In this document: positions 24,075 to 62,180 of the stretch, in pieces
How positions within the stretch are numbered: the first letter of the stretch is position 1
Layout of the letters: every line of letters begins with the position of its first letter
NCBI GenBank assembly: GCA_036351775.1
Contig: JAZBPX010000064.1
Coordinates: 247,241-311,240 of the forward strand
DNA length: 64,000 nucleotides
Source: Pacificimonas sp.
GTDB lineage: Bacteria; Pseudomonadota; Alphaproteobacteria; Sphingomonadales; Sphingomonadaceae
Direction of reading: 5' to 3'
The notes under the pieces: model-generated
The model's input: the letters and a program-made list of their open reading frames with translations, nothing else
Told to the model about the DNA's origin: nothing
Database searches by the model: none
Program-made: the position numbers and the translations under genes

Positions 24075-24079
24075 CTCGG

Positions 24080-24493: not shown

Positions 24494-24504
24494 CGAAGGT
24501 CTCT

Positions 24505-25743: not shown

Positions 25744-27217
25744 CGACCGACAGGTCCTTCCTGAGGATGCGGACGGCCTCTTCGACCGTCGTACGCCCTT
25801 CGGCCACCAGCCGCCGCGCGGACGCCGCCATGCTGGGCGCACCGGCGAAGGCATGGCGGGCAATCGCGCCCTCGTCCGCGCCGGACAGCATCAGTTCGCG
25901 CAGGCCGCCATCGACGCGGATCATCTCGAACACGCCGATGCGGCCCTGGAAGCCGGTCTGGTTGCACTCCGCGCAGCCTTTCGCGGTGTAAATCGGCGTA
26001 CCGGCATCAAGGCGAAGCGGTGCCGCTTCGGCGGCGCTGGCGGGGTGCGGCTCGGCGCAGGCGCGGCAAAGCTGCCGCACCAGCCGCTGCGCCATCACCA
26101 GCCTCAGCGAGGAGGCCATCAGGAACGGCTCGACGCCCAGGTCCTTCAGCCGGGTGATCGCGCCCACGGCATCATTCGTGTGGACCGTCGACAGGACGAG
26201 GTGCCCGGTCAGCGAGGCCTGCACGGCAATCTCCGCGGTCTCGTGATCGCGTATCTCGCCGACCATCACGATGTCCGGATCCTGCCGCAGGATCGCGCGC
26301 AAGCCGCCGGCAAAGGTCATGCCGACCTTCACATTCACCTGCGTCTGGCCGACGCCCTCCATGGCGTATTCGACCGGGTCCTCGACGGTCAGGATATTGC
26401 GCTCGCCGTCGTTCAGCATGCGCAGGCCGGCATAAAGCGACGTGGTCTTGCCGGAGCCGGTCGGGCCGGTGACGAGGATGATGCCGTTGGGTTCGGACAG
26501 CGCCTGCCGGAACACCGCGAGCATGTCGTCCGGCATGCCGAGGTCGGCGGGCGTCAGTTCGGCCTGTTCCTTGTCGAGGATGCGGAGGACCACGCGCTCG
26601 CCGCCGCGCGCGGGCAGGGTCGAGACGCGCACGTCGAGTTCGCGGCCGCCGAGCGCGAGCGACAGGCGCCCGTCCTGCGGCACGCGGCGCTCGGCGATGT
26701 CGAGGCGGGCCATGACCTTGATGCGGCTGGTGACGAGCGGCGCGACCTTCGGCGGCAGGCGGAGGATTTCCTTCAGGACGCCGTCGACGCGCAGGCGTAC
26801 CATCAGCGCACTTTCGAAGGGTTCGATGTGGATGTCGCTGGCGCCGTCGCGGATGGCCTCGGCGAGGATCCCGTTGATGAGCTTGATGACCGGCGCATCG
26901 TCGTTTGTTTCAAGGAGGTCGGCGGCGGCGGGCAGGTCGTCGGCCAACGCGCCGAGATCCCCGGCCTGTGCCAGCTCGCCGGACACCGTGTTGGCATCGA
27001 GCGCGCCGGCGCCGTAGAGTTCGTTCAGACGGGCGTCGAAATCCCTGGCGCTGAGGCGCTCGAAGGCGATGGCGCGGCCAAGCGCGCGGCGGACCTCGAG
27101 GAGGGTTCGCGGGTCAGCATCTTCGCGCAGGCCGATGGGGATCGGACCGCCTTCGCTGGCGGGCAGCGCGACGACGCCGTGCTTCTTCGCGAAAGGATAG
27201 GGAAGGTCCGCCAGCAT
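25730..27217 (-). CDS. gspE: type II secretion ATPase E
   Basis: Walker A GPTGSGKTT, Asp box, Walker B ILRQDPDIVMVGEIRD, tetracysteine CRACAE...CAECN. Confidence 0.95.
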   Translation of the reverse strand: MLADLPYPFAKKHGVVALPASEGGPIPIGLREDADPRTLLEVRRALGRAIAFERLSARDFDARLNELYGAGALDANTVSGELAQAGDLGALADDLPAAADLLETNDDAPVIKLINGILAEAIRDGASDIHIEPFESALMVRLRVDGVLKEILRLPPKVAPLVTSRIKVMARLDIAERRVPQDGRLSLALGGRELDVRVSTLPARGGERVVLRILDKEQAELTPADLGMPDDMLAVFRQALSEPNGIILVTGPTGSGKTTSLYAGLRMLNDGERNILTVEDPVEYAMEGVGQTQVNVKVGMTFAGGLRAILRQDPDIVMVGEIRDHETAEIAVQASLTGHLVLSTVHTNDAVGAITRLKDLGVEPFLMASSLRLVMAQRLVRQLCRACAEPHPASAAEAAPLRLDAGTPIYTAKGCAECNQTGFQGRIGVFEMIRVDGGLRELMLSGADEGAIARHAFAGAPSMAASARRLVAEGRTTVEEAVRILRKDLSVDAEL

Positions 27218-27226
27218 CGGCGCGGC

Positions 27227-29485: not shown

Positions 29486-29488
29486 GGC

Positions 29489-30280
29489 CTAGGGCACCCT
29501 TACGGTGAGGGGGACCTGCGTCCCGCGGCGCTCAAGCACCAGCGCCAGTGTGTCGCCGGAGCGGGCCGACGCGAACAGCCGCCGCGCCTCTGCCGGCGTC
29601 GAGACCGTCTGCCCGTTCAGGGAGATCAGCGCATCGCCCGCCTGCAGCCCGCTGCGCCGGAAGATATCGCCGCTGCCGCCCGGCTGCACGATCAGGCCGC
29701 CGCCCTCTCTCACGGACAGGGCAATCTCACGCTCCATCGCGGCGGCCTCATCCCTCTGCGGACCCGTGGAAGGTGAGGCCCCCGACGCGCCGCCGACACG
29801 GACCGCCGGTTCGCTTTCGTCGAGGTAAAGCGCCTCTTCCGCGCCGCCGCGCGCCAGGACGACATGATCGCGCTCGACGCGGAGGAGCGACAGGCCGCGC
29901 AGGATCTCGTCGCCGACGGCATAGCTACGCTGCGGCTGGTCCTCGCCGCCGATGATCGCGGAGCCGCGACCGGTTGCCCGGTCCTCCCGCACGCCGAACA
30001 GGCTGAGGTCGCTCGCCGATACGGCGAGCGCGCCGCCGTTCGACCGGAAACCGAACACGGCATCGAGGCCGGTGAACTGGGTTGCCTGCGCGCCGGGCAC
30101 GGTGACGTTCGCACGCCAGACGCCCAGCGGACCAATGGGCGCGAGCGCAGCCCAGAACAGAGCGGCGATCGCGGCGGCCAGAAGCGCCATCGCCGCCAGT
30201 TCGGCAGCGCTGTAGATGGCGCGCACGCCAAAGCGCCGCTCCGTCTGCCTACTCGCTGTCGTCATGGTCCCCGCCTGCAT
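29489..30280 (-). CDS. gspC: type II secretion protein C (TM + HR domain + PDZ)
   Basis: First gene of the operon, 3 nt upstream of gspD. It has an N-terminal TM, an HR-like LSLFGVREDR...YAVGDEI...LLRVERDHVVL segment, and a C-terminal PDZ-like GLQAGDALISLNGQTV. Confidence 0.8.
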   Translation of the reverse strand: MQAGTMTTASRQTERRFGVRAIYSAAELAAMALLAAAIAALFWAALAPIGPLGVWRANVTVPGAQATQFTGLDAVFGFRSNGGALAVSASDLSLFGVREDRATGRGSAIIGGEDQPQRSYAVGDEILRGLSLLRVERDHVVLARGGAEEALYLDESEPAVRVGGASGASPSTGPQRDEAAAMEREIALSVREGGGLIVQPGGSGDIFRRSGLQAGDALISLNGQTVSTPAEARRLFASARSGDTLALVLERRGTQVPLTVRVP

Positions 30281-30439
30281 GGAAGCCCCAATTCTCTAGG
30301 GTTGCATTATGACAAAGCTGCGACGGGCTAAACCCCTGTTCCCCCTAAGGGCGCGGCGGGCGGTGCCTCGGACGCCGAAGTCCTCCGCTTCGCCAAGCCC
30401 GTTTCCGGTAGCAGACCCGTGCGATATAGGACCGGCGCA

Positions 30440-47118: not shown

Positions 47119-47162
47119 GGGGGCCAGCGACGCTACCGCTACCGCCACCACCGCCCTTCCTA

Positions 47163-47251
47163 GTCATCCCAGCGCAGGCTGGGATCCATGCTGGGATGGT
47201 CCCGCCGGGTTCCACCTCTACAGCGTGGATCCCAGCCTGCGCTGGGATGAC
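47163..47251. repeat. MITE/REP-like palindromic element, family 2 (GTCATCCCAGCGCAGGCTGGGATCC)
   Basis: The left arm 47163-47187 is the exact reverse complement of the right arm 47227-47251. Each arm holds a CCCAGC/GCTGGG mini-hairpin. The element lies between two convergent genes. Confidence 0.85.
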
Positions 47252-47305
47252 TAATTCCTGGGATGGCTTAACCAGTCAGTCTCCAGACACCGAACCGGCC
47301 GCGCC

Positions 47306-47956
47306 CTAGCTCGTCGGGGGTTCCGTCAGACCGCGCTCTTCCATTCGCTGGCGATAGGACCGCTGATAATCCTCGATCTGCGCGAAATGCTCCTGGAAGA
47401 TCTGCTCCATTTCCACGAGCGCGGGCAGCGCATAGCCCTCCAGCCCCTCCACCGACAGATCGAGCGCCGCGTTCAGGTGCCGACGGGCGGCCGGGCAGAA
47501 GATCGCCAGCGTCGTGGGCTGCGCGAAGTGATTGTAGAGCGAGGTCATGTGGCTGTCGCGAATGCGCGAACCGGCAGCGCCATGTTCGCGCAGAAACTTC
47601 TGCTCGATCGCGCGGTTCGCCTCACGCAGCGGCTGCGCGAACGTCTTGATGAACTCGTTATATTGCGACGCCAGGTCATAGCCCGGCATGTTGCGGCAGC
47701 TGAGCGCCGCGACATTCAGCGCGGCCCGGAAATGAAACAGCTGTTCGAGCGGTCCGATCTCCGAATTCGGCGTCTGGTAGCTGCCGTCCGCCAGTTTTGG
47801 CGGCAGGTCCATGTTGAAATAATGCGGGTCGGGCGGCTCCAGCGCCTGCACCACCGGAGGCGGCGGCGGCGGGGGCGGCGGCGGTGCTGGCGGCTCCGGG
47901 GCGGCACAGGCGGCCAGCATTGTCAGGGACAAAATGGTCGGCAGACCCCAGCGCAT
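47306..47956 (-). CDS. lipoprotein with a Pro10 tract
   Basis: Lipobox LTMLAAC followed by APEPPAPPPPPPPPPPVV. The C-terminal ~170 aa are helical and of unknown function. Confidence 0.6.
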   Translation of the reverse strand: MRWGLPTILSLTMLAACAAPEPPAPPPPPPPPPPVVQALEPPDPHYFNMDLPPKLADGSYQTPNSEIGPLEQLFHFRAALNVAALSCRNMPGYDLASQYNEFIKTFAQPLREANRAIEQKFLREHGAAGSRIRDSHMTSLYNHFAQPTTLAIFCPAARRHLNAALDLSVEGLEGYALPALVEMEQIFQEHFAQIEDYQRSYRQRMEERGLTEPPTS

Positions 47957-48140: not shown

Positions 48141-49886
48141 ATGCAGTCTTATTTCCCCGGCCTGTCCCGCCTGAAGGGCTATGGCGGTAAGGATGCAGCC
48201 GCCGACCTCGTTGCCGGGCTGATCCTTGCCGTGCTGCTCGTCCCGCAGGCGATGGCCTACGCCCGGCTCGCCGGACTGCCGCCAGAGGCGGGACTGTATA
48301 CCGCGATGGCCCCGGCGCTGATCTATGCCTTTCTCGGCACCAGCAGCTACGTGTCCATCGGGCCGGTCGCGCTGGCCTCGATCCTCGCGGGGGAGGCGGC
48401 GGCGAACTCCGGCCTGCCGCTTCTGGAAGGCGCGGCGATCATTGCCGTCCAGACCGGTATCCTCCTCGCGCTGCTCGGCATTTTCCGCATGGGCCGCCTC
48501 GTCAATTTCGTGTCGGAGCCTGCGCTTCTCGGCTTCCTCGCCGCCATCGCGGTCCTGATCGGGCTCAGCCAGCTGGGCGCGCTTCTCGGCGTCGATGCGG
48601 AGCGCGGCGGCACGCTGATGGCGATGCTCGACGGCCTTCTGCCGGTCATCGGCAACATCAGCGTGACGACGGTCCTGATCGGGCTCGGCGCGCTGGCGCT
48701 GCTGCTGCTCGCGGACCGCTTCGCGCCGCCGATCCTGTGGAAGCTTGGTGTGCATCCCCCCTGGCGCACGGCCATCGCGAAGTCCCTGCCGCTGCTGATC
48801 CTGGTTCTCGCCGCCATCGCCGCGCTTGCCCTGCCCGGCGTGACGACGATCGACCAGCCGCCGTCGGGCCTGCCGCCCCTCACCTTTCCGGCCTTCGACA
48901 GCGCGGTCTGGCTGGCCCTCCTGCCCGACAGTGCGATCATTGCCGTCATCATCTTCGTCACCGGTACGGCGGTCGCGAAGTCGCTCGCCGGCCGCAACCG
49001 GCAGGCGCTCGACAGCAGCCAGGAATCGATCGCGCTCGGCGCGGCCAGCGTCGCGGCGGGCATGACCGGCGGCTATGTCCCGGGTGTCAGCCTGTCCCGC
49101 TCCGCGCTCGTTTATGACAGCGGCGCGCGCACGCCGTTCGCAAGCGCCGTCGCCGCGGCCATCGTGCTGCTGGTGCTGCTGCTCCTGTCAAAGCCGCTCA
49201 GCTACCTGCCGGAGGCGGCGCTGGCGGCGCTCGTCATGGCGGCGGTTTCCGGCCTCGTGCGCTGGGGCGAGATCGTCACCGTCGCGCGCCATTCGAAGCG
49301 GGAGGCGGTGGTCATTGCCATCGCGTTCTTCGCCACCCTCGCGCTCGGCATCCAGTGGGGCCTGATCCTTGGGGCAGCCAGCGGCATCGCGCTCTACCTC
49401 TGGTCGTCCAGCCTACCCCGGATCACGCGCCTCGGTTACGAGGAGGAGGCGGACCATTACCGCTCCGTCGACCGCGATGAGGTGGAGATCGATTCGCTGC
49501 CGGTGCTCGTCCTTCGCATCGACAGGTCGCTCTTCTTCGGCAATGTCGCGCGCGCCGAGGATGAGCTGCTCGGCCTGATCGCCCGTCACGAGGATGTGCG
49601 CTGCCTGCTGATCGACATGAAGGGCGTGAACGAGATCGACGCTAGCGGCCTTGCCATGCTCGAACGGCTCGTCGACAATGCTGAGGACAAGGACCTGCGC
49701 GTCGGCTTTGCGGTCGTGAAGAAGCCTCTTCTCGTCCCCCTGCAACGCAGCAAGCTGCTGCGCTTCTCGCCGGTCTATGAAGACGTCGAGGTCGGCGTCG
49801 AGGAGATGAAGAAGGCCTGCGGTGACGACGACGCCCGGCCGCGCCGCGACGCCCTCTTGGCCAGCGACCGCGCGGTGAACGGCTAG
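48141..49886 (+). CDS. SulP-family sulfate/anion permease with C-terminal STAS domain
   Basis: N-terminal SulP signature (DLVAGLILAVLLVPQAMAYARLAGLPPEAGLY), about 11 TM segments and a STAS-like tail (LVLRIDRSLFFGN...DASGLAMLE). Confidence 0.9.
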   Translation: MQSYFPGLSRLKGYGGKDAAADLVAGLILAVLLVPQAMAYARLAGLPPEAGLYTAMAPALIYAFLGTSSYVSIGPVALASILAGEAAANSGLPLLEGAAIIAVQTGILLALLGIFRMGRLVNFVSEPALLGFLAAIAVLIGLSQLGALLGVDAERGGTLMAMLDGLLPVIGNISVTTVLIGLGALALLLLADRFAPPILWKLGVHPPWRTAIAKSLPLLILVLAAIAALALPGVTTIDQPPSGLPPLTFPAFDSAVWLALLPDSAIIAVIIFVTGTAVAKSLAGRNRQALDSSQESIALGAASVAAGMTGGYVPGVSLSRSALVYDSGARTPFASAVAAAIVLLVLLLLSKPLSYLPEAALAALVMAAVSGLVRWGEIVTVARHSKREAVVIAIAFFATLALGIQWGLILGAASGIALYLWSSSLPRITRLGYEEEADHYRSVDRDEVEIDSLPVLVLRIDRSLFFGNVARAEDELLGLIARHEDVRCLLIDMKGVNEIDASGLAMLERLVDNAEDKDLRVGFAVVKKPLLVPLQRSKLLRFSPVYEDVEVGVEEMKKACGDDDARPRRDALLASDRAVNG

Positions 49887-50266
49887 CGGGGGATTATGTC
49901 CTGCGCCTGCCGGTCCGCAAGGCATTGCGGCACGGCCTGGCGTCCCCGCGCCGCGGCGTCATCCAGCCCTTCCGCATCGAGTGCGCCGAACACCTCCTCT
50001 GCAGAAGCCGGGACCAGCATGCACGCATAGCCTGCCGGACAGTCGGCGCGGGCTCTCGTATAGTCGCTGAACCAGGCGGCACTGCCGATGGCATCGCGTG
50101 TCTTCGCAGGAACGGGCGCCATGATCTCGTCCGTAATGCAGGCGGCAGCCAGCGTTGTCAGTCCGGCATCGGTCAGACGAAGGTTCAGCTTGTTGTAGGG
50201 ACCGGGCAGGCAGGCCGCCGCAGCAAGGCCGCCAATGACTAGCAGCATGATCCCGGATCGTTTCAT
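49883..50266 (-). CDS. small lipoprotein of unknown function
   Basis: The internal ATG 50266 gives MKRSGIMLLVIGGLAAAAC. Several Cys residues. It converges on SulP with a 4-nt overlap. Confidence 0.5.
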   Translation of the reverse strand: MKRSGIMLLVIGGLAAAACLPGPYNKLNLRLTDAGLTTLAAACITDEIMAPVPAKTRDAIGSAAWFSDYTRARADCPAGYACMLVPASAEEVFGALDAEGLDDAAARGRQAVPQCLADRQAQDIIPR

Positions 50267-50577
50267 GCCTGCCCTTCCGCCGCTTTGCGCGCCCGCCGCC
50301 ATGCCAGCGACCGGGCGTTATATGCGGGCAGGTCCAGCGTCCCCGCGGCAAAGCCCTTCGCGATGCTCACCGCTTCCGCCTGTCTGTCCGTTGGTATGGA
50401 CCGGTAGGCCGGGCGCTCCTTTACATGATCGTACCACACGCCGCCGAACACCGCGTCGAGGGCCACACGCTGGAAACAATGATCGAACCGGATCGGCCAG
50501 CCCCGTACGGCCGCAAGCCCCGGCAGGACATCGCGCGTCAGGCGCAGCCAGTCCTGCTCCAGGTCTTTACGCGTCAT
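50263..50577 (-). CDS. conserved hypothetical protein (WPIRFDHCFQRV motif)
   Basis: ATG 50577 (MTRKDLEQDW...); TTG 50589 is also possible. It is divergent from crtZ with a ~70-nt spacer. I recall this motif from a widespread uncharacterised family but cannot name the family. Confidence 0.55.
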   Translation of the reverse strand: MTRKDLEQDWLRLTRDVLPGLAAVRGWPIRFDHCFQRVALDAVFGGVWYDHVKERPAYRSIPTDRQAEAVSIAKGFAAGTLDLPAYNARSLAWRRARKAAEGQA

Positions 50578-50645
50578 CGACGCGCACAACGTGCCGCGGC
50601 GCCTTTGGGGTGCACGGCGCGGCCCGCGCTGCTATATTAAAGCTC

Positions 50646-51164
50646 ATGTCTATCTGGCTTGGTCTTCTCATCACGCTCGGCACGGTGGTCTTCATGGAGG
50701 GCTTTGCCTACGCCATGCACCGCTGGATCATGCACGGATTCCTGTGGTCACTGCACAAGTCGCACCATGAACCGCGTGAGGGGATCTGGGAACGCAATGA
50801 CTGGTTCGGCGTCGTCTTCGCCCTGCCCTCCGTCGCGCTGATCTTCGCCGGATCGCAGACCAGCGCATGGGTGGGCCTTGCGTGGATCGGTCTCGGCATT
50901 GCTATTTACGGCGCGATCTATTTCATCTTCCACGACTGGCTGGTGCATGAGCGCATCCCCAGCCGCTACGTCCCGAAATCGCGCTACATGAAGCGCATCG
51001 TGCAGGCGCATAAGCTGCACCATGTCGTGAACACGAAGGCGGGCACCGTCAGCTTCGGCTTCCTGTGGGCACCGCCGGTGAAAACGCTGAAGGCGCAGCT
51101 CGCCGCGAACCAGGAGGCGGGGGAAGCGGGCCTTCGCGTTCCGCGCGGCTCCCGCGCCGTTTGA
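50646..51164 (+). CDS. crtZ: beta-carotene 3-hydroxylase
   Basis: The internal ATG 50646 gives a 172-aa protein with His boxes HRWIMH, HKSHHEP, HDWLVHE and HKLHH. Confidence 0.92.
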   Translation: MSIWLGLLITLGTVVFMEGFAYAMHRWIMHGFLWSLHKSHHEPREGIWERNDWFGVVFALPSVALIFAGSQTSAWVGLAWIGLGIAIYGAIYFIFHDWLVHERIPSRYVPKSRYMKRIVQAHKLHHVVNTKAGTVSFGFLWAPPVKTLKAQLAANQEAGEAGLRVPRGSRAV

Positions 51165-51268
51165 GCCGCCCGTCCGACCGCCTTCCGGTACAGGGGGCGA
51201 ACCAGATCCTGCCGGCCCTGTGGGCGCGCGGTCTCGCGCCGCCGCCGATAACCACGCCCGAACAGTTG

Positions 51269-52405
51269 ATGACGGAGGCCGCGGACAAGACGGGCCTCGA
51301 TGATTTCGGCGACGAGACTTTTCGCGAGGGGCTGTCTGTCCTTTGCGAGGCGCAGCGGGCCGAGGCCGAGCTGACCCCGCTGGGCGAGGTCGTGACGCAT
51401 GGCGGGCTGGTCCGCGCCCTGTCGCAGCGCCTGACCGCGGTCGAATGGTGGAAGCGGCACCCCGAGATTCTCGACTATCCCATCGTACGGCCGATCATCG
51501 TCCTTGGCGGGATGCGGTCCGGCACGACCCGGCTCCAGCGCCTGCTCGCGACCGATCCGCGCCTGCAGGCCACCCGGTTTTTCGAGGGGAACACCCCCGC
51601 CCCGCCGCTGTCGATGCGGCCCGGCGATTTCGACCGTCGGCGCCTGACCGCGCAGGCCGCCTGCGTGGCCACGGACATTCTTTCGCCTGCCTTTCGCAAG
51701 ATCCATCCCACCAGTCCGATGGCCGCCGATGAAGAGCTGCCGATGCTGGAACTCAGCCTGTCCGGCGCGCAGATCGAGGCGCAGCGCCGCGTACCGAGCT
51801 TCCGCGCCTGGGCGGAGCGCACGTCGCAGCATCACGCCTACCGCTTCCTGAAACCGCTGCTGCAGCTTCAGGGCTGGCTGCGTCAGTCGGACCCCGCCCG
51901 CCCCTGGGTGCTGAAGACACCGCAATATATGCAGGATCTGGACGCGCTGCTTGACGTCTTCCCGGACGCGCGCATCGTGGCGATCCACCGGGAGCCGGGG
52001 GCGCAGGTCGCCTCCTCCGCGTCGCTGGTCTGGACGCTGATCGGGGCGCTTTCCGATACGGTGACGAAGGACTGGTGCGGCCAGGAGTGGCTGCACAAGA
52101 CCGCCTACCGCGAACGCACCGCGGCCGCCGTTCGCGCGGCAAACCCGCAGGTGCCGGCCATCGATGTCAGCTTCGCGGATATGAACCGGAATGCCCTTCT
52201 CGTGATGCGGCAGGTCTATGCCTTCATCGGCCTCACCTGGTCGGCGGATGTGGAAGCGCGGATGCAGGCCTGGCTCTCCGCGTCAAAGCGGCGCGGCGAA
52301 CATCGCGGCCACCGCTACTCGCTGGAGGAGTTCGGCCTCGCCGAAGCGGACATCACCCGCGCTTTTGCCAGCGCCCCGGCTGTTCCTGTACCAGCGCTGT
52401 CCTGA
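51269..52405 (+). CDS. PAPS-dependent sulfotransferase-family protein (candidate carotenoid sulfotransferase)
   Basis: 5'-PSB loop VLGGMRSGTTRLQRLL and 3'-PB-like IVAIHREPGAQVASS. Start is ATG 51269, or alternatively TTG 51161, which overlaps the crtZ stop. Confidence 0.8.
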   Translation: MTEAADKTGLDDFGDETFREGLSVLCEAQRAEAELTPLGEVVTHGGLVRALSQRLTAVEWWKRHPEILDYPIVRPIIVLGGMRSGTTRLQRLLATDPRLQATRFFEGNTPAPPLSMRPGDFDRRRLTAQAACVATDILSPAFRKIHPTSPMAADEELPMLELSLSGAQIEAQRRVPSFRAWAERTSQHHAYRFLKPLLQLQGWLRQSDPARPWVLKTPQYMQDLDALLDVFPDARIVAIHREPGAQVASSASLVWTLIGALSDTVTKDWCGQEWLHKTAYRERTAAAVRAANPQVPAIDVSFADMNRNALLVMRQVYAFIGLTWSADVEARMQAWLSASKRRGEHRGHRYSLEEFGLAEADITRAFASAPAVPVPALS

Positions 52406-53139
52406 GCGCGCCCTCCGAGCCTGCGCGTCGGCAGCCGCCACCACGGTTCGCCGGGATACAGGTGATGCTCGTGGTGGAACCCGCCGAAGTGAAAGCAGCT
52501 GAGCAGTGACAGCCAGGTCGGCTGCGCCGTCGACCGCGCGCGGTGCCGGTCCGCAAAGCCCGTCTCGCTGTGGCGGTGCGGCAGGTACGTGCCGAAGGTG
52601 AAAAGCTGGAGGAGCGCCAGCAGCGCAGGCACCGCCCAGAAAACGACGATGTTCAGAAGGTGCGCGCCCAGCAGTAGGTAAAGCGTCGCCGCCACCGTGA
52701 TCCGCGCAAGCTGGCCATGGGTATAATAGCGCGTGAAGAAGCGCAGCAGCCACGGCGCGAAATCACGCGGCCGCTCGGCGTGAAAGTCGGGATCGTCTGC
52801 TGTCCCGACATGGCTGTGGTGGCGGTAATGCGCCGGCTTCATCCGGTCATAGTCAAGGCCGGCATAGATCATCAGTGCGGCTTGTCCCACGCGCTCCTGC
52901 ACCTGCGGCAGGCGCGGTGCGAGCGAGCCGTGCATCGCGTCGTGCGCGGTGATGAACAGGCCGGTCGACAGCCAGGCCTGCGCAAGGATCAGAAGCCCCG
53001 CCGACCAGAGCGGCTCCGTGCCCAGGTCGATGAAGAAAATCCCGTAGACGTGCAGCGCGGTCCACGCCGCGAAGATGCCCACCGCGATGGCTAGGCCGAT
53101 GACCGTCTGGCGGGTCCGGGAGGACACGGCGCCGCTCAA
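52315..53139 (-). CDS. crtW: beta-carotene 4-ketolase
   Basis: His boxes HDAMHG, HYRHHSH and HHEHHL followed by PWWRLP. A TTG start at 53139 overlaps the crtB stop (TTGA); GTG 53127 is an alternative. Confidence 0.9.
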   Translation of the reverse strand: MSGAVSSRTRQTVIGLAIAVGIFAAWTALHVYGIFFIDLGTEPLWSAGLLILAQAWLSTGLFITAHDAMHGSLAPRLPQVQERVGQAALMIYAGLDYDRMKPAHYRHHSHVGTADDPDFHAERPRDFAPWLLRFFTRYYTHGQLARITVAATLYLLLGAHLLNIVVFWAVPALLALLQLFTFGTYLPHRHSETGFADRHRARSTAQPTWLSLLSCFHFGGFHHEHHLYPGEPWWRLPTRRLGGRAQDSAGTGTAGALAKARVMSASARPNSSSE

Positions 53140-54143
53140 ACCCTCTGGCGGTCCAGCACCGCCATCATCGGCTCCGGTTCCCGCCAGCTATCGGCAGGGT
53201 CATAGGTCCACAGATCGCCCCGAGCGCTCGAGGTGAACTCGGCAGGCCCCGCCGCCTTCACGTCCTTCCGCGCCGCCGCCAGCATGCGCAGCTTCTCCAG
53301 CTTCGTCGTATACTGCCGCTCGTCCCAGGCATCCGGCCCCGCCGCACGGACCTTTTCGCCGATCGCGCGGTACACCTTCTCCGCCGTCAGGACGGCCCAG
53401 GCCGCGCGCGGCGGCAGATAGGCTGCCCCCTCGCTGGCGCTGGCATAGTATCGGTCGGCAAGGGTCAGCATCTTCTCGGCAACGCGGGTCAGCGCAAATC
53501 GGTTCTCTGGCCGGGCATGATCGCCCGGCGCGATGTCTTCCCCTACCAGCCATTCGGTCGGCAGGTAGCAGCGGTCGTTCGCCGCATCCTCGACAATGTC
53601 GCGGCAGATGTTGGTCAGCTGGAAGGCGAGGCCGAGGTCCGCCGCGCGCGTCATCAGCGCCTCGTCCTCTGGCGACACGCCCATCACGACCGCCATCATG
53701 CGCCCGACAACGCCCGCGACATGCTCGCAATAATCGAGCGTATCCTCGATTCGCGTATAGCGCCGGTCATAGGCGTCCATCGCGAAGCCCTTCAGGTGCC
53801 GCATCGGCAGGTCGTGCGCCATCCCCGTTTCCGCCGCCACGAGGCCGATGGCCGCGAACGCGCCGGTTTCGCTGGCGGGATCGGCCAGTCCGCGCCGCGT
53901 CCGTTCCCGCAGCTCGGCGAGCCGCGCCAGCACCGCCTCCTCGCTTTCGACCGCCGCGCCCAGCGGCACGCCGCGGCGGCCGCCCTCCTGCCCGTCCACC
54001 ACATCGTCGCAATGGCGGCACCACGCATAAAGCAGCCGCACGCGGCGCTTCGTTTCCGCATCGAAGAGGAGCGATGCCAGGGCAAACGACTTCGAACCCT
54101 TCGCGATCGAACGGGCGGCCCATCTGTCGAGATCTGGGGTCAT
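53136..54143 (-). CDS. crtB: phytoene synthase
   Basis: SKSFALASLLF, the Asp-rich motifs YAWCRHCDDVVDG and NICRDIVEDAANDRCYLP, and YCEHVAGVVG. Start at the internal ATG 54143. Confidence 0.93.
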   Translation of the reverse strand: MTPDLDRWAARSIAKGSKSFALASLLFDAETKRRVRLLYAWCRHCDDVVDGQEGGRRGVPLGAAVESEEAVLARLAELRERTRRGLADPASETGAFAAIGLVAAETGMAHDLPMRHLKGFAMDAYDRRYTRIEDTLDYCEHVAGVVGRMMAVVMGVSPEDEALMTRAADLGLAFQLTNICRDIVEDAANDRCYLPTEWLVGEDIAPGDHARPENRFALTRVAEKMLTLADRYYASASEGAAYLPPRAAWAVLTAEKVYRAIGEKVRAAGPDAWDERQYTTKLEKLRMLAAARKDVKAAGPAEFTSSARGDLWTYDPADSWREPEPMMAVLDRQRV

Positions 54144-54204
54144 GCTGGGTGGCACTCTAGCGGGTCGGGAAGGCGGTGGGAATGCAGAGCACCCATCAAG
54201 CGCC

Positions 54205-54304
54205 GTCATTCCCGCGCACGCGGGAAACCAGTCCGCCATTCCGCCCGTTCTAGGCTCGGCTTCGCCATCGCCCGCCTCTGGATTCCCGCGTGCGCGGGAA
54301 TGAC
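54205..54304. repeat. MITE/REP-like palindromic element, family 3 (GTCATTCCCGCGCACGCGGGAAWC)
   Basis: The left arm 54205-54228 is an inverted repeat of the right arm 54280-54304 (ggattcccgcgtgcgcgggaatgac). It lies in the crtI-crtB spacer. Confidence 0.85.
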
Positions 54305-54331
54305 GGCTTGGAGCAGGCTCATACCGCTTCG

Positions 54332-55879
54332 CTACGCCGCCGCGACTACGCCCGAATTGTGACCGATGCCGCCAGTATCGCTCGACCCGGCACCTTCCGT
54401 CCCGGCAAAGTCCGCCAGCATCAGTTTCGCCGTCGCCTTCGCGCTGCCGACGACGCCGGGAATACCTGCACCGGGATGCGTGCCTGCACCCGTAAAGTAG
54501 AGGTTCGACACGACGTCATCGCGGTTGTGGACACGGAAATAGGCGCTCTGCCACAGCACCGGTTCCAGACTGAAGGCGCTGCCCTGATGCGCGTTCAGCT
54601 CGCGCTTGAAATCGAGCGGCGAGAAGTGATGCCGCACCTCGATATTCTCGCGCAGGCCGGGCAGCAGATGCTCTTCCAGATAGTCGATGATCTTGTCGCC
54701 ATAGCCCTCGGCAACCTCGTCCCAGTTGCCCTCGAACTTGCCCATGTGCGGCACGGGAGCGAGGACATAGAAGGTCGAGCAGCCCTCCGGCGAAAGGTCC
54801 GGATCGGTGGCGGTCGGGTGGTGCAGGTACAGACTGAAATCCTCCGGCAGCGCCTTCGCCCCGTAAATCTCGTCCAAGAGACCCTTGTAGCGGTTCGCGA
54901 GGAGGATGTTGTGGTGCGGCACGTCCGGATAGGTCTTCTTCACACCGAAATAGAGGACGAACAGGCTGGGCGAGAAACTGCGCCGCGCCAGCGCCTTCGC
55001 CGCCTTCTTCCCGCGCGGATGATCCTTCAGGAGGTCGGCATAGGTGTGAACGATGTCGCCGTTCGATCCGATGCCGTCGACCCGCATCCGCGTGCCGTCC
55101 TGCAGCACGACCGCGCTGACGGAATCGCCCTCCGTCTCGATCCGTTCCACGCCGTTGCCGACGATCAGCGTGCCGCCAAGATCCTCGAACAGGCTGGCGA
55201 GCGCGCGCACCAGCGCATGCGTCCCGCCCTTCGGGAACCACACGCCGCCCTCCTTCTCCAGCTTGTGAATGAGCGCATAGATCGCGCTGGTCTTGTAGGG
55301 ATTGCCGCCAACCAGCAGCGTATGAAAGCTGAACGCCTGCCGCAGCCGGTCGTCCTTTATGTAGCGCGAAACCATCGCATAGACGCTGCGAAACGCCTCG
55401 TAGCGCATCAGGGCGGGGGCGGCGGAAATCATCGACTTGAAGTCCAGGAACGCCTCGGTCCCCAGCTTCTCATACCCCTCCCGGTACACATGCCCGGCAT
55501 AGTCGAGGAAGCGCTTGTAACCCTCGACATCCGCCGGGTTCAGCTTCTCGATTTCGGGAAACAGGACGCTCTCGTCGTTCGTGTAGTCGAACGTCGTCCC
55601 GTCCTCCCAGAACAGCCGGTAGAAGGGCTGGACCGGCACCAGATCAACATAATCCTCGATCCGGCGCCCGGAGAGGGCAAACAGCTCCTCAAGGCAGGGC
55701 GGATCGGTGATGACCGTCGGCCCGGCGTCGAAGGTGTACCCCTCCCGCTCCCAGACATAAGCGCGGCCGCCGATCTTGTCGCGCGCCTCGATCAGCGTGA
55801 CGTCGTGCCCCGCCGATTGCAGCCGCACGCTGAGCGCCAAGCCGCCAAAGCCCGCGCCGATTACCGCCAGTTTCGCCAA
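54332..55879 (-). CDS. crtI: phytoene desaturase
   Basis: FAD fold AVIGAGFGGLALSVRL, FDAGPTVITDP and C-terminal FTGAGTHPGAGIPGV. The start codon at 55879 is TTG. Confidence 0.95.
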   Translation of the reverse strand: MAKLAVIGAGFGGLALSVRLQSAGHDVTLIEARDKIGGRAYVWEREGYTFDAGPTVITDPPCLEELFALSGRRIEDYVDLVPVQPFYRLFWEDGTTFDYTNDESVLFPEIEKLNPADVEGYKRFLDYAGHVYREGYEKLGTEAFLDFKSMISAAPALMRYEAFRSVYAMVSRYIKDDRLRQAFSFHTLLVGGNPYKTSAIYALIHKLEKEGGVWFPKGGTHALVRALASLFEDLGGTLIVGNGVERIETEGDSVSAVVLQDGTRMRVDGIGSNGDIVHTYADLLKDHPRGKKAAKALARRSFSPSLFVLYFGVKKTYPDVPHHNILLANRYKGLLDEIYGAKALPEDFSLYLHHPTATDPDLSPEGCSTFYVLAPVPHMGKFEGNWDEVAEGYGDKIIDYLEEHLLPGLRENIEVRHHFSPLDFKRELNAHQGSAFSLEPVLWQSAYFRVHNRDDVVSNLYFTGAGTHPGAGIPGVVGSAKATAKLMLADFAGTEGAGSSDTGGIGHNSGVVAAA

Positions 55880-55957
55880 AGAACTTTCCTCCAGAACCAG
55901 TACCTGTCACCGCGAACCGCCTGCCGCGGCCCGTCACCTGCATCGCCAGACCGGGCG

Positions 55958-56111
55958 CTGGATGCTGAAACCAGTTCAGCATGACGGGGGTGCCAAAGCG
56001 CCCCTGCACCCGTCGGCCGTTACCCGGCCGCCATCCGGCCCCCCATCCGGCCGCCATTATGTCGTGGGCAGCAACAAAAGCCCGTCACCCTGAACTCGTT
56101 TCAGGGTCCAG
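55958..56111. repeat. family-1 element pair in the crtY-crtI spacer (inverted orientation, ~98-nt spacer)
   Basis: ctggatgctgaaaccagttcagcatgac (55958-55985) faces gtcaccctgaactcgtttcagggtccag (56084-56111). The flanks cgggcgctgg / ccagcgcccg extend the pairing. Confidence 0.85.
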
Positions 56112-56144
56112 CGCCCGGTGCCGCTCCCACCACTCGGTCCTCGT

Positions 56145-57335
56145 CTACCCTTTCGCGCGCCACCTCGGCCGCCAGCTGATCTTCGGTACCGAGCGCGCCA
56201 GCACACCCAGCGCTTTCCCGATCGGCACCGGCGGCTTTCCGGACAGGACCCGCGCTATGTCCGCCGCCGTCGACTTGCCCGCGTAGAAGCGCTCAACCAG
56301 TCCTTCGTCCAGTGCGTAAAAGTGTTGCAGCGTGCGGTAACGGGTCTCCGGCGTCGCCGCCTCGAACATCATGCGGTTGAGCAGGCGGTAAAAACCGCGC
56401 TCGTTCCACTTCTCGATGCTGTGCTCGCGCAGCGCCTCTTCCAGCGGCCCCGAATCCAGCCGCACCTGCGACTTGATGACGTCGGCGGTGTCGACCGCGT
56501 CCGGCCAGCTATAGCCCGTGATCGGGTGGAACAGCGCGCCCGCCATCCCGGCTTTTGGCACGGGCGGACCATCGGCCAGGAACGCCTCGATATCGCCGCC
56601 GAGCGCGATGGGAAGGACGCCGGTTTCAATGCGGTCCTCCTCATAGGGGCCGATATCCATGTCCGCGATGTAACTGCGGATACGGTTCAGGACTTCCTGC
56701 TCATAAATCTCCGGACCATCGGAGTAATAGGTGTCCTCGACCAGCAGCCGGGTTTCGGAGAAGGGCAGGACATAGACGAAGCGGTAGCCGTCCAGCTGCG
56801 GCACGCTCGCATCCATGACGACCGGCTTGGTGCGCCCGTGCGGCACCTTCGTCTCGATCTCCAGCCCGACGAACTTCTGGTAGGCGAGGTTCAGGTGCTT
56901 CGACGACGAATGCCCGCGGCAGTCGATCACCGCGCCCGCCTCCAGCACCTGCCCGTCCGCCAGCCGCACCATCTTCGGCAGCACCTTTTCGATGGTGCGC
57001 CCGGTGATGATCGCCCCCTGCGGCAACCGTTCGCGCACCGCCCTGTCGAGCGAGGCCGACCGCACGCTGGCATAGGGCGTCGAGAGCTCGCGCTCGTAGT
57101 TCGGGAACTTGACCTTGTAGCCGCCCTCCCAGCGGTGATCCTGCAGCTCGCGCGTCCACATAAGCTGCGGGCCGCGCACGTCGGTGGCGAAGCTCGACCA
57201 GATCTTGTCGCCGCCCAGCGTCTCGCCGCTCTCGACAATGGCCACCGAAACCCCGGGCCGCGTATCCGCCAGCCGCATCGCGATCAGCCCGGCCGCCAGC
57301 CCGCCGCCGGCAAGTATGATATCGAAATCAGACAT
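56145..57335 (-). CDS. crtY: lycopene beta-cyclase
   Basis: FAD motif DIILAGGGLAAGLIAMRL, FVGLE, and PFSETRLLVEDTYYSD, typical of bacterial CrtY. Confidence 0.9.
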   Translation of the reverse strand: MSDFDIILAGGGLAAGLIAMRLADTRPGVSVAIVESGETLGGDKIWSSFATDVRGPQLMWTRELQDHRWEGGYKVKFPNYERELSTPYASVRSASLDRAVRERLPQGAIITGRTIEKVLPKMVRLADGQVLEAGAVIDCRGHSSSKHLNLAYQKFVGLEIETKVPHGRTKPVVMDASVPQLDGYRFVYVLPFSETRLLVEDTYYSDGPEIYEQEVLNRIRSYIADMDIGPYEEDRIETGVLPIALGGDIEAFLADGPPVPKAGMAGALFHPITGYSWPDAVDTADVIKSQVRLDSGPLEEALREHSIEKWNERGFYRLLNRMMFEAATPETRYRTLQHFYALDEGLVERFYAGKSTAADIARVLSGKPPVPIGKALGVLARSVPKISWRPRWRAKG

Positions 57336-57410
57336 GGGTTGCGCTCCTTTCTCCCCTGATCGTCACGTCACCGCCGCGACATCTGTTCGTCCGAACCATT
57401 TCAGTGGAAA

Positions 57411-57888
57411 CTGGATGCTGAAACAAGTTCAGCATGACGGATGGGTGAAATGTCCGCCAGCCTGACCCCGACCCGTCATCCTGAACTCTTTTCAAGGTCC
57501 AGCGTCCGGCACCGCGCGGCCAGCCCTTCCCGGAAGCCCGTCGCCCTGAACTCGTTTCAGGGTCCAGTGACCGATGCGACGCCGCCAGTCCTTCCCAAAG
57601 CTCGTCACCCCGAAAACGCTCGGGTTCGTCCACCTCACAGCCTCACCGAAAACTGGATGCTGAAACGAGTTCAGCATGACGGCGAGGCGAACCGTTCACG
57701 GGACAATCTAAAGGAAGCTCGTCACCCTGAACTCGTTTCAGGGTCCAGCGCCCGAGACGACGCCGCCAGTCCTTCCCGAAGCCCGTCACCCTGAACTTGT
57801 TTCAGGGTCCAGTGGCATGAGCGGCATCTGGAGCGTGTTCCAGCCAGGCACCAACGGAAACTGGATCCTGAAACGAGTTCAGGATGAC
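57411..57888. repeat. composite array of eight family-1 hairpin units in the crtY / crtG-like divergent spacer
   Basis: Units start at 57411(A), 57475(B), 57540(B), 57604(B, degenerate), 57653(A), 57721(B), 57785(B) and 57861(A). A is the inverse orientation of B. B units are spaced 64-65 nt apart with conserved inter-unit sequence. Confidence 0.9.
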
Positions 57889-57919
57889 GGGTCCGGGCAG
57901 AGCCTGCTAGGGATACGCC

Positions 57920-58741
57920 ATGTCCTACGCCGCCGCCGCCCTGTTCCTGACCGTCGTGATCGCCCTGCGGTACGCGGCGGTCAGCGGGCTGTTCGCGGCC
58001 GTGACGGCGCGGGCGCGGCCCGGGCTTTACGCCGCTAAGCGCTCTCGCAAGCAGCAGCGGATGGAACGGCGCTGGTCGCTGATCGCCGCGGTCATCTACG
58101 CATTGCCCGCCGCCGCCGTGCTCGTCCTGTTCCAGCGCGGCGGGACGGCGATCTACACCGATGTCGCCGCCTATCCGCTGTGGCTCATCCCCCTGAGCAT
58201 CGCCGCCTACCTGTTCCTGCACGACACCTGGTTCTACTGGACCCATCGCTGGATGCATCACCGGCGGCTGTTTCCGGTCATGCACAAGGTTCATCATGAC
58301 AGCCGCCCGCCAACCGCCTGGGCGGCCATGAGTTTTCACTGGACGGAGAGCCTGTCGGGCGCGGTCCTGATCCCGGCGCTAGCGCTGTTCATCCCCATTC
58401 ATATCGGCGCACTGGCCCTCGTGCTCGCCGTCATGACGATCTTCGGCACCACCAATCATCTGGGCTGGGAGATTTTTCCGAAGCGCCTCGTTCATGGTAT
58501 GTTTGGAAAGGTCGTGATAACCGCGTCACATCATCACAGGCATCACAAGGATTATGCCTGCAATTTCGGACTCTATTTTCGGTTCTGGGACCGAATCATG
58601 GGGACCGACCGAGGGCTGGCAAAGGATTTCGGCAGTGGGGAAGCACAGGCGCGCGCGCGCAGCATCGGTCGGGGCACTGGCCGCGCTGCCGCTGATGGCG
58701 ATGGGAACGGCGACGCCGGTCCCCTCCACCCCGCAGAGTGA
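57920..58741 (+). CDS. fatty-acid hydroxylase/sterol desaturase superfamily protein, candidate carotenoid 2,2'-beta-ring hydroxylase (CrtG-like)
   Basis: His boxes HDTWFYWTHRWMHH, HKVHHDS and HHHRHH. About 4 TM helices. Located next to crtY. The assignment to CrtG rests on context and family only. Confidence 0.65.
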   Translation: MSYAAAALFLTVVIALRYAAVSGLFAAVTARARPGLYAAKRSRKQQRMERRWSLIAAVIYALPAAAVLVLFQRGGTAIYTDVAAYPLWLIPLSIAAYLFLHDTWFYWTHRWMHHRRLFPVMHKVHHDSRPPTAWAAMSFHWTESLSGAVLIPALALFIPIHIGALALVLAVMTIFGTTNHLGWEIFPKRLVHGMFGKVVITASHHHRHHKDYACNFGLYFRFWDRIMGTDRGLAKDFGSGEAQARARSIGRGTGRAAADGDGNGDAGPLHPAE

Positions 58742-59147
58742 CATTGCCGGACGAATGGCGGACTCCGGCGCCCCGGCGACGCTGCACCTGACTCTCGAAG
58801 GCCTCCGCAAGCCGCGCGGCACTGTCCGCGTGTGCCTGTGGTCGCATGGCGATGGCTTTCCCGACTGCAAGAAGGGCGCGGGCGTCGTTAAAATCCATGC
58901 GCCGGTCGAGGGTGACCGCGTCGATTTGGACGTCGCCGCCCTGCCACCCGGCGATTACGGCGTGTCTGTGATCCACGATGAGAACGACAACCGAAAGCTC
59001 GACAAGAGCTTCATCGGCCTGCCCATGGAGGGCGTCGGCTTCTCCAACAACGCGTCTGCGGCTTTCGGCCCGCCTAAGTTCAAGCGCGTCCGGTTTGCCG
59101 TTGCCGGTGATACCACGCAGACGATCAAGCTGAAATACTACCTTTAG
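58635..59147 (+). CDS. DUF2141-like secreted protein
   Basis: GTG 58635 gives a signal-like N-terminus (GKHRRARAASVGALAALPLMAMG). The core GTVRVCLW...YGVSVIHDENDNRKLDKSFIGLPMEGVGFSNN matches my recollection of DUF2141. Confidence 0.6.
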   Translation: MGKHRRARAASVGALAALPLMAMGTATPVPSTPQSDIAGRMADSGAPATLHLTLEGLRKPRGTVRVCLWSHGDGFPDCKKGAGVVKIHAPVEGDRVDLDVAALPPGDYGVSVIHDENDNRKLDKSFIGLPMEGVGFSNNASAAFGPPKFKRVRFAVAGDTTQTIKLKYYL

Positions 59148-59171: not shown

Positions 59172-60068
59172 CTAGTCGCCGAACGCCGAGCTACGAAGCG
59201 CCCGCACCGCCTGTTTGGGATCGGTCAGCGCGCCGGGCGCGCGAACAAAGACGCTCAGCCCCTGATCCGCGGACAGCCGCCGGATGCGCGCCCGTTCCTC
59301 CCGTTTCAGCCGCTTGATGGTCAGCCGGTCGTCTGCATCCAGGTCGCGGGCAAAGGCCGTCTCTGCCAGCGACAGCGCCTTCAGCTTCTCCTTCGCCACC
59401 GCCAGGTCGCTCGCCAGCGTCGTATTGCCGCCATGGATGCGCGCATGGGCGTGGATGTGCGGGTCATGCACCGCCGAACCGAGCAGGCTGAGCGCGATCA
59501 TGTGAAAGCGGTCCTCGCTCGTCGCCAGTCCGGAGAAGAACAGCCCGGCCCGGATCGCATCCGCGCGCCGCACCAGCGTCGTCTCCATCGACACGCACAG
59601 GCCGGGCAGGAACGCCTTGTGCAGCCCGCGCTCAATCACCGTCGGTTCGTCGCTGGCGGGCGAAAACAGCGCCGCGAAGGTCGACCGGTCGAGATAGGTC
59701 TCCGTTTCCGGCCCGTCTTGGAACAGGCGCACCGCATCGCCGAACGCCATCACATGATCGCCAAGGATCGCCTCGAGCCGTTCCAGATGATCCGGCATCC
59801 AAAGATCGTCGGCATCCAGCCAGGCAATTCGCTCGCCCGTCGCCGCCGCGACGCACGCATTGCGCGCGCCCGAAATGCCGCGATTCGCTTGGCGGATCAG
59901 GCGCACGGGATAGCGCGCGGCAATCTCCGCGGTGTCATCGGTCGATCCATCATCCACGACCACGATCTCGTCGGGCGGCCGCGTCTGCCCCAGCGCACTC
60001 TCCAGCGCCTCGGCCAGAAAGGGGGCAGCGTTGTAAGCGGGGATCAGGCAGCTAATGGTCATAGCCAT
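59172..60068 (-). CDS. glycosyltransferase family 2
   Basis: SCLIPAYNAAPFL, VVDDGSTDDT and LDADDLW (DxD) motifs. Confidence 0.85.
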   Translation of the reverse strand: MAMTISCLIPAYNAAPFLAEALESALGQTRPPDEIVVVDDGSTDDTAEIAARYPVRLIRQANRGISGARNACVAAATGERIAWLDADDLWMPDHLERLEAILGDHVMAFGDAVRLFQDGPETETYLDRSTFAALFSPASDEPTVIERGLHKAFLPGLCVSMETTLVRRADAIRAGLFFSGLATSEDRFHMIALSLLGSAVHDPHIHAHARIHGGNTTLASDLAVAKEKLKALSLAETAFARDLDADDRLTIKRLKREERARIRRLSADQGLSVFVRAPGALTDPKQAVRALRSSAFGD

Positions 60069-60149
60069 TTGCTATCCACCCGACGGGCTCCTTCCGGTCA
60101 ACGAACGATTGACGAAGGCCTGCGCGGCCATCAATCTTGTCGTCAGCAA

Positions 60150-60252
60150 TTGTTCCCAGGGGTGCCGGCGTTTTTCGGCTGAGATCGCGCTGCCTTCGCG
60201 CGGAACCCTTCGAACCTGAACCGGGTCGTGCCGGCGTAGGGATGGAGAACTT
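60150..60252 (+). promoter_or_regulatory. TPP (THI-box) riboswitch
   Basis: CAGGGGTGCCGG...GGCTGAGA...AACCCTTCGAACCTGAACCGGGT.GTGCCGGCGTAGGGA matches the conserved TPP aptamer cores. It lies directly upstream of thiC. Confidence 0.85.
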
Positions 60253-60290
60253 CACTGCGCGCATCCCGCGCCGTCCGCGTCCCCCTTTGA

Positions 60291-62180
<1,890 letters not shown>

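Follow-up and report, generated by a model that had tools for sequence, protein, structure and literature searches.

Which enzyme sulfates the carotenoids of the Sphingomonadales? Bacteria of the Erythrobacter type have for many years been recognized as a source of the sulfates of erythroxanthin, caloxanthin, nostoxanthin, and zeaxanthin. The question is raised by a stretch of 64,000 nucleotides of a metagenome-assembled genome of the marine sphingomonad Pacificimonas sp. (positions 247,241 to 311,240 of contig JAZBPX010000064.1), referred to below as the window, which carries a cluster of carotenoid (crt) genes with an open reading frame (ORF), here designated ST, located between crtZ and crtW. 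The original prediction, made from this stretch alone, held that ST is a carotenoid O-sulfotransferase using 3'-phosphoadenosine 5'-phosphosulfate (PAPS). Our analyses point to ST as a candidate xanthophyll 3-O-sulfotransferase, a function that we consider well supported but unproven (probability of about 0.6). The membership of a sulfotransferase family and the linkage to crtZ were both borne out, whereas the acceptor substrate and the regiochemistry are what we infer. The predicted gene content of the cluster, namely crtZ, ST, crtW, crtB, crtI, crtY, and a third di-iron hydroxylase-type gene, was recovered by ORF listing and by Pfam and NCBIfam profile searches of the window ORFs, each gene at its expected position (Table 1).

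Comparison of ST with the Pfam profile PF13469 (Sulfotransfer_3) gave a score of 103.5 bits for a cut-off of 27 bits and covered positions 1 to 215 of the 216 positions of the profile. The length of the protein had been left between 378 and 414 residues. The longer form, initiated at the TTG codon at position 51161, was retained as the true one, since a conserved N-terminal segment (R-x-A-N...L-W-x-x-G-L-x-P-P) is encoded upstream of the ATG codon at position 51269, and initiation at that ATG (378 residues) was rejected. An identical protein of 414 residues is annotated at NCBI for Pacificimonas sp. (P0001). A GTG codon at position 51065 (446 residues) was also rejected, in view of this annotation and of the start of the conserved segment between positions 51161 and 51269.

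A profile built from 24 ST relatives (44 to 68% identical) was compared with the Protein Data Bank (PDB). The profile matched Stf1 from M. tuberculosis (PDB 2zq5; E = 5.4e-68), with positions 34 to 403 aligned on residues 12 to 382 of Stf1, and Stf9 from M. avium (PDB 2z6v; E = 1.9e-54). The AlphaFold2 model of ST (pLDDT of 92.2 and pTM of 0.91) was superimposed by Foldseek on the structures of Stf1 and Stf9 with TM-scores of 0.84 and 0.82 and sequence identities of 30% and 26%, respectively. An end-to-end alignment of 369 columns, which included the N-terminal helical segment, gave TM-scores of 0.84 and 0.87. Tyrosylprotein sulfotransferases (TPSTs), the sulfotransferase domains of CurM and OLS, Stf0, and the cytosolic sulfotransferases (SULTs) came far behind. 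Stf1 and Stf9 share with ST a full-length homology, a size of ca. 380 to 415 residues, and both PAPS-binding signatures, namely R-x-G-T-T in the 5'-phosphosulfate-binding (5'-PSB) loop and H-R...S in the 3'-phosphate-binding (3'-PB) segment. They differ by their origin in mycobacteria, which belong to a different phylum, and by the P-S-H sequence that follows the L-K strand, where the ST family has P-Q-Y/H. We know of no link between the mycobacterial genes for Stf1 and Stf9 and carotenoid genes.

Both PAPS-binding motifs quoted in the original prediction (GMRSGTTR and HR...S) fell on invariant columns of the 24-sequence alignment. Residue numbers are those of the 378-residue form and have to be increased by 36 for the 414-residue protein. 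The 5'-PSB loop, GGMRSGTTR, directly follows the strand formed by residues 76 to 79 of the model and aligns with GLVRTGTT of Stf1; residues G80, M82, R83, S84, G85, T87, and R88 are invariant in the 24 sequences. The 3'-PB segment, IVAIHREPGAQVASS, comprises the strand 235 to 240 followed by the helix 243 to 258 and aligns with THRPVETIMAS of Stf1. Its invariant residues, R241 and S249, are 8 residues apart. Invariance extends to about 50 columns, including every PAPS-binding position; E106, E155/E156, K216, and H348-R349-Y350 are likewise invariant. E106 is located 23 residues after the arginine of the 5'-PSB loop, a spacing similar to that of the catalytic glutamate of TPSTs, and one of the invariant acidic residues (E106 or E155/E156) is probably the catalytic base, as judged from the alignment. 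Together, the conserved residues and the predicted fold indicate that ST is probably an intact, active sulfotransferase of the Stf1 type, for which we infer that PAPS is the sulfate donor.

The TTG start codon of ST overlaps the TGA stop codon of crtZ by 4 nucleotides (TTGA), which couples the two genes at the level of the operon. Start and stop codons overlapped by 4 nucleotides in 10 of the 13 crtZ/ST junctions examined. For the crtZ→ST order, the NTGA overlap was present in 9 of 10 loci, comprising the window, three Pacificimonas loci (L001, L005, and L009), a locus from a metagenome-assembled genome (MAG; L007), three Sphingosinicella loci (L043, L047, and L059), and a metagenome-assembled chromosome (L081). 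For the ST→crtZ order, an ATGA overlap was found in L006 and gaps of 16 and 7 nucleotides were found in L029 and L041, respectively.

The region upstream of crtZ-ST, in the window and in L001, L005, L007, L043, L047, L059, and L081, also contains a conserved ORF encoding a proline-rich, lipoprotein-like polypeptide of 216 residues (positions 47306 to 47956 of the window, minus strand). This ORF is common to Pacificimonas-type loci (L001/L004 and L007) and to Sphingosinicella-type loci (L043, L047, L059, and L081). A gene encoding a DUF2855 protein is located nearby in the window, in L007, and in three Sphingosinicella-type loci (L047, L059, and L081). The presence of the 216-residue ORF in both groups therefore points to a single ancestral arrangement behind the crtZ-ST context of Pacificimonas- and Sphingosinicella-type loci.

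How far the pairing of crtZ and ST extends was assessed in 160 related loci, 80 from a set of bacterial genomes containing one genome per species and 80 from metagenomes, the latter set being seeded with an ST sequence from a different lineage. The Crt proteins of the window served as queries against the flanks, which extended up to 10 kb in the genome set and 6 kb in the metagenome set. Genes of the crt type flanked ST in 25 of the 160 loci (12 genome loci and 13 metagenome loci), and in all 25 of them ST adjoined crtZ or had crtW as the sole gene between the two. The gene orders observed were three: crtZ→ST in Pacificimonas and Sphingosinicella; ST→crtZ in Polymorphobacter arshaanensis, in Sphingomonas deserti and its metagenomic relatives, and in several MAGs; and ST followed by crtW in the opposite orientation and then by crtZ in L027, L117, and L119. 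The identity of ST in the crt-linked loci extended down to 42%, and the outer flanks differed. The association of ST follows crtZ rather than crtW, since the clusters of Sphingosinicella, Polymorphobacter arshaanensis, and Sphingomonas deserti contain no crtW. Persistence of the crtZ-ST pairing through three gene orders and at such sequence divergence is good evidence, at the level of genome comparison, for a functional link between the two genes.

The neighbor-joining tree of the 80 ST relatives from genome loci broadly tracks taxonomy, which suggests that each genome inherited one ST ortholog vertically, as opposed to many unrelated paralogs; no second ST paralog was found in the window. A shared neighbor other than crt genes was sought as a pointer to the substrate by clustering ca. 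1,100 flanking ORFs. This approach was set aside, as the neighbors, mostly housekeeping genes, were lineage specific (for example, the Sandaracinobacter group has pntAB and a beta-lactamase-like gene, and Citromicrobium has a TonB-dependent receptor gene) and none was order-wide. Two metagenome contigs (L152, positions 1760 to 7606, and L162, positions 898 to 6812) each carry two tandem ST paralogs that are 30 to 36% identical to the ST of the window and adjoin a gene for a CrtI-like flavin adenine dinucleotide (FAD) oxidoreductase (24 to 25% identical to CrtI). These paralogs may belong to a different sulfation system.

What reaction would ST catalyze in this context? The products of crtB, crtI, and crtY would make beta-carotene, to the rings of which CrtZ, CrtW, and CrtG would add 3-hydroxyl, 4-keto, and 2-hydroxyl groups, respectively. 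ST, as a cytoplasmic enzyme, would then sulfate the 3(3')-hydroxyl placed by CrtZ, using PAPS whose synthesis is encoded elsewhere in the genome. Cotranscription and translational coupling of crtZ and ST would ensure that the hydroxylase and the sulfotransferase are made together. The pathway is predicted to end in polar pigments resembling the sulfates of erythroxanthin, caloxanthin, nostoxanthin, or 4-ketonostoxanthin.

This scheme has a counterpart in the same order. Strain KJ5 of Erythrobacter flavus makes carotenoid 3-sulfates, and its cell-free extract turns zeaxanthin into sulfated products (PMC6627997). The sulfates of zeaxanthin, caloxanthin, and nostoxanthin were characterized in that species; formation of these acceptors requires CrtZ and CrtG, and the esterified group is the 3-hydroxyl made by CrtZ (PMC6627997). 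An ST ortholog (P0136) is present in Qipengyuania flava (synonym of E. flavus), with 41% identity over 391 residues (E = 5e-88), the match being at the level of the species. The difference from the window lies in the location of the gene, which in Q. flava adjoins serS and surE outside any crt cluster.

The closest mechanistic precedent is, by analogy, found in M. tuberculosis, in which Stf3 sulfates menaquinone-9 following its hydroxylation by Cyp128, the two genes belonging to one operon (PMC7404182; PMC7081687). As proposed for CrtZ and ST, a hydroxylase makes a hydroxyl group on an isoprenoid lipid, which is then esterified by a PAPS sulfotransferase encoded in the same operon. The hydroxylase is a cytochrome P450 in one case and a di-iron membrane protein in the other, and the acceptor is a quinone side chain in the former and would be a carotenoid ring in the latter. 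The crt clusters containing the gene for glycosyltransferase CrtX offer a second parallel, as they likewise encode an enzyme that renders the hydroxylated end group polar; CrtX differs in transferring a sugar and in having a fold unrelated to that of ST. An order-wide survey published in 2018 names no sulfotransferase among the crt genes of the Sphingomonadales (PMC5989583).

Several observations weigh against the proposed function. The original prediction had held that orthologs located mostly in noncarotenoid contexts would refute it, and this is the distribution that we found: ca. 84% of the 160 related loci had no crt gene in the flanks searched. Crt-linked copies of ST occur in several lineages of the Sphingomonadales, but the ortholog of the producer species Q. 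flava is not one of them: in the Erythrobacteraceae, Q. flava included, ST has serS, surE, a K+ channel gene, and rimO as its neighbors. Independent support from linkage perhaps amounts to 3 to 5 lineages rather than to 25 loci, because most of the crt-linked lineages belong to one part of the order, Pacificimonas, Polymorphobacter, and Sphingosinicella forming a single clade (PMC12210278). ST relatives at 42 to 48% identity occur in Sphingomonas and Novosphingobium, from which only unsulfated nostoxanthin has been reported, on the basis of lipophilic extracts only (PMC10734531, PMC3324416). No account of Pacificimonas pigments was found in the searchable literature, and no genes for PAPS synthesis were found near ST among the window ORFs scanned. 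The database names of the ST orthologous group are all generic, and Stf1 and Stf9 provide no clue to the substrate because they were deposited only as "putative uncharacterized protein." We do not take the unlinked majority of orthologs as a refutation, although it limits confidence. The genes crtE, crtG, crtZ, and crtW are typically dispersed in these genomes (PMC9241875), as illustrated by Sphingomonas elodea, in which crtZ is located outside the crt cluster (PMC3324416), and the occurrence of an ortholog in a species that makes carotenoid sulfates agrees with what the hypothesis leads one to expect.

Could ST act on another hydrophobic or envelope molecule, such as a sphingolipid, a hopanoid, a quinone, or a polysaccharide precursor, its adjacency to crtZ being a historical accident? 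We regard this as unlikely but as an explanation to be taken seriously. The unlinked loci, many of which are placed among housekeeping genes or beside a TonB-dependent receptor gene, speak for it, as does the near-universal presence of the ST group in the sampled genera of the Sphingomonadales, including genera without reported carotenoid sulfates; the Stf-type enzymes with assigned roles use noncarotenoid acceptors, Stf3 and hydroxylated menaquinone-9 being an example. This explanation is difficult to reconcile with the 4-nucleotide overlap kept in both Pacificimonas and Sphingosinicella, or with the persistence of the two genes as neighbors in the reverse order (ATGA overlap or gaps of 7 to 16 nucleotides) and in the remaining arrangement, where crtW separates them, since chance adjacency would not outlast three rearrangements at ST identities down to 42%. 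The unlinked orthologs themselves are uninformative in this respect, the crt genes being normally dispersed (PMC9241875, PMC3324416).

We consider two other explanations far less probable. Retinol dehydratase and the sulfotransferase domains of CurM and OLS use PAPS for sulfation followed by elimination, with a thioesterase as the partner in the case of CurM and OLS. By the same chemistry, the 3-hydroxyl could be sulfated transiently, with the sulfate acting as a leaving group and elimination producing a didehydro or anhydro ring, the final pigment being unsulfated. Foldseek did recover retinol dehydratase (1fmj and 1x8j) and the CurM and OLS domains (4gbm and 4gox), which shows only that the fold allows such chemistry; these matches were weak (TM-scores of 0.3 to 0.37 versus 0.84 for Stf1), the crt cluster encodes no partner for elimination, whether of the thioesterase type or another, and the documented products in the Sphingomonadales are stable carotenoid 3-sulfates (PMC6627997), which makes this route improbable. 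The idea that ST is a decaying or noncatalytic remnant with no role in pigmentation deserves even less credence: its C-terminal tail is not conserved and the corresponding coding sequence overlaps crtW, as might be the case for a remnant, but the reading frame is intact, the PAPS-binding positions are invariant in relatives that are 44 to 68% identical, the structure model is confident (pLDDT of 92), and the identical ST protein is present in two assemblies. Sulfation of the xanthophyll 3-hydroxyl remains the most likely function of ST.

The remaining genes of the cluster and its surroundings are listed in Table 1.

Table 1. Carotenoid cluster of the window and adjoining genes
Gene or product	Coordinates	Strand	Basis of assignment
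crtZ, beta-carotene 3,3'-hydroxylase	50646..51164	+	His motifs HKSHHEP, HDWLVHE, HKLHH; 80% identical to P. flava CrtZ
ST, Stf1-type predicted PAPS-dependent sulfotransferase, 414 residues, TTG start	51161..52405	+	PF13469, E = 2.5e-29
crtW, beta-carotene 4-ketolase	52315..53139	-	FA_desaturase, E = 5.5e-24; NF045690 (CrtW), E = 3.1e-67; His motifs HDAMHG, HYRHHSH, HHEHH
crtB, phytoene synthase	53136..54239	-	SQS_PSY, E = 2.9e-63; NF042419, E = 6.6e-100
crtI, phytoene desaturase	54332..55879	-	TIGR02734, 673.5 bits (cut-off, 238 bits)
crtY, lycopene beta-cyclase	56145..57335	-	TIGR01789, 408 bits (cut-off, 215 bits)
crtG-type, predicted carotenoid 2,2'-beta-ring hydroxylase	57920..58741	+	PF04116 (FA_hydroxylase), E = 2.9e-28; family and synteny
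DUF2141 protein, conserved crtG partner	58554..59147	+	PF09912, E = 4.8e-31
SulP-family sulfate permease with STAS domain	48141..49886	+	Sulfate_transp, E = 8.3e-83, and STAS; TIGR00815, 342 bits, below the cut-off (380 bits)

Two of these boundaries may be refined by comparison with another assembly. The likely real start of crtB gives a protein of 335 residues, as called in L085, and places the end of the gene at position 54143; the DUF2141 gene encodes 150 residues in the other assembly, corresponding to ca. 58695 to 59147 in the window. ST and crtW are convergent, and their 3' ends share 91 nucleotides (positions 52315 to 52405). The corresponding overlap is 109 nucleotides in P. flava (L001) and 55 nucleotides in L003, and the overlapping C-terminal tails of the two proteins are both weakly conserved. 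A scan for promoters and terminators between positions 49800 and 53300 gave nothing above the expectation from shuffled sequences.

The assignments of crtW, crtZ, and crtG call for comment. The score of the window CrtW with NF045690 (226.6 bits) misses the equivalog cut-off of 350 bits. We treat the protein as a divergent CrtW because NF045690 leads the other NCBIfam matches by 190 bits, the model is covered end to end, and the three His motifs are present. The window CrtZ had no Pfam match, even at an E value of ≤10. The P. flava CrtZ to which it is closely related matches PF04116 with 46 bits, and the window protein reads H-D-W-L-V-H where H-D-G-L-V-H is usual. The absence of a match is probably an effect of filtering or bias correction and not a loss of function.

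The CrtG-like call made for the third hydroxylase held up, although the homologs of this protein are named only "sterol desaturase family" in databases, none bearing a CrtG label. The gene is divergent from crtY-crtI-crtB and is immediately followed by a DUF2141 gene; a DUF2141 gene also follows the crtG homologs of L001, L005 to L007, L029, L041, L043, L047, L059, and L081. Divergence from crtY-crtI-crtB is likewise seen for the experimentally established crtG of S. elodea (PMC3324416), and pairing with a DUF2141 gene is a hallmark of crtG in Qipengyuania (PMC9241875). We accept the hydroxylase as CrtG on the basis of its family, synteny, and DUF2141 partner. The resulting gene set fits "group II" of the 2018 survey of the Sphingomonadales, for which pigments of the erythroxanthin type were predicted (PMC5989583).

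The original prediction further described the locus as a self-contained module, a claim that we do not maintain. No gene encoding the geranylgeranyl diphosphate (GGPP) synthase CrtE, an ATP-sulfurylase, an adenosine 5'-phosphosulfate (APS) kinase, or a sulfatase was found by Pfam analysis among the ca. 40 window ORFs scanned, all of which are outside a block at ca. 20.5 to 30.3 kb. The SulP permease, to judge from its family, may supply sulfate for PAPS synthesis, but the link is weak: its gene is found beside the crt genes in the window and in P. flava alone (58% identity), the other Pacificimonas loci lacking it at this place, and inclusion of the permease in the module was set aside as suggestive at most. 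Two small minus-strand ORFs between the SulP gene and crtZ (positions 49883 to 50302 and 50263 to 50589) had no Pfam match and were not retained. Of the two, only the second one proved to be conserved in a direct tblastn search, with matches in P. pallii and in two MAGs, one of Pacificimonas and one unclassified.

The spaces between the genes of the cluster are rich in short palindromic repeats resembling repetitive extragenic palindromic (REP) sequences or miniature inverted-repeat transposable elements (MITEs). These were located between crtB and crtI (positions 54202 to 54307), between crtI and crtY (positions 55950 to 56120), and between crtY and crtG (positions 57410 to 57897), with a further occurrence at positions 47161 to 47253. 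The repeat unit, CCGTCACCCTGAACTCGTTTCAGGGTCCAG, is present in at least 9 copies in both orientations, and a second type of hairpin, GTCATTCCCGCGCACGCGGGAA, is found among the repeats, from which spurious ORFs arise (with peptides such as IPACAGMT and LKRVQHDG). In L085, which originates from the second assembly with the identical ST protein, the distance between crtG and crtY is 59 nucleotides longer than in the window, which suggests that the two assemblies differ in the number of repeat copies.

Between the crtG-DUF2141 pair and thiC (positions 60309 to 62180), the window contains a gene for a family 2 glycosyltransferase (positions 59172 to 60068, minus strand) that P. flava (L001) does not have at this place. 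It could encode an additional enzyme of carotenoid tailoring, or it could have been inserted there without any relation to the pathway. A thiamine pyrophosphate (TPP) riboswitch (RF00059; 77.9 bits) is located 5' of thiC (positions 60148 to 60259, plus strand). Elsewhere in the window, the block spanning ca. 20500 to 30300 (minus strand) has a G+C content of 70 to 72% versus ca. 64% in the remainder, and its ORFs resemble a type II secretion operon, including one with a pseudopilin-like N terminus and one encoding a 752-residue protein of the size of a secretin. A cytochrome P450 gene (positions 6410 to 7843, plus strand; E = 3.6e-57), unrelated to the crt cluster, is flanked by genes for a GT4 glycosyltransferase and an alpha/beta-hydrolase (positions 5169 to 6353 and 7913 to 8923, both on the plus strand).

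What would the assignment of ST bring? To our knowledge, no substrate has previously been assigned to the Stf1/Stf9 branch of bacterial sulfotransferases, and if the proposed function is correct, ST would provide one. The genes for carotenoid sulfation were described as "unexplored" in the 2019 study of strain KJ5 (PMC6627997). In agreement with the original prediction, which considered the sulfation gene to be unassigned, no paper assigning such a gene was found in the searchable full-text literature, subscription-only papers being outside the scope of this search. ST is the best available candidate for the enzyme producing the sulfated carotenoids of these bacteria. Its fold and chemistry are conventional; what is new is the candidate substrate class, the operon overlap with crtZ, and the route that these offer for assigning an orphan activity. 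With a single clonable candidate that is coupled to crtZ and has an ortholog in a producer species, this orphan sulfation activity becomes addressable. If the function is correct, a sulfation step would be added to the toolbox of carotenoid pathway engineering; the commercial use of astaxanthin, for instance, is limited by its poor solubility in water (PMC13023446). The gene would also serve as a genomic marker to predict polar carotenoids in marine Sphingomonadales and in aerobic anoxygenic phototrophs.

A broader proposition is that the whole group of Stf1-like proteins of ca. 400 residues across the sampled Sphingomonadales is the missing xanthophyll 3-O-sulfotransferase. We put this forward tentatively, as a possibility with the balance somewhat against it. 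If it is true, the copies that overlap crtZ in Pacificimonas and Sphingosinicella would reveal the role of the unlinked copies in the Erythrobacteraceae, Sphingomonas, and Novosphingobium. Carotenoid sulfates would then be far more common in the order than the few reports imply, and they may have escaped notice through the use of lipophilic extracts in pigment work.

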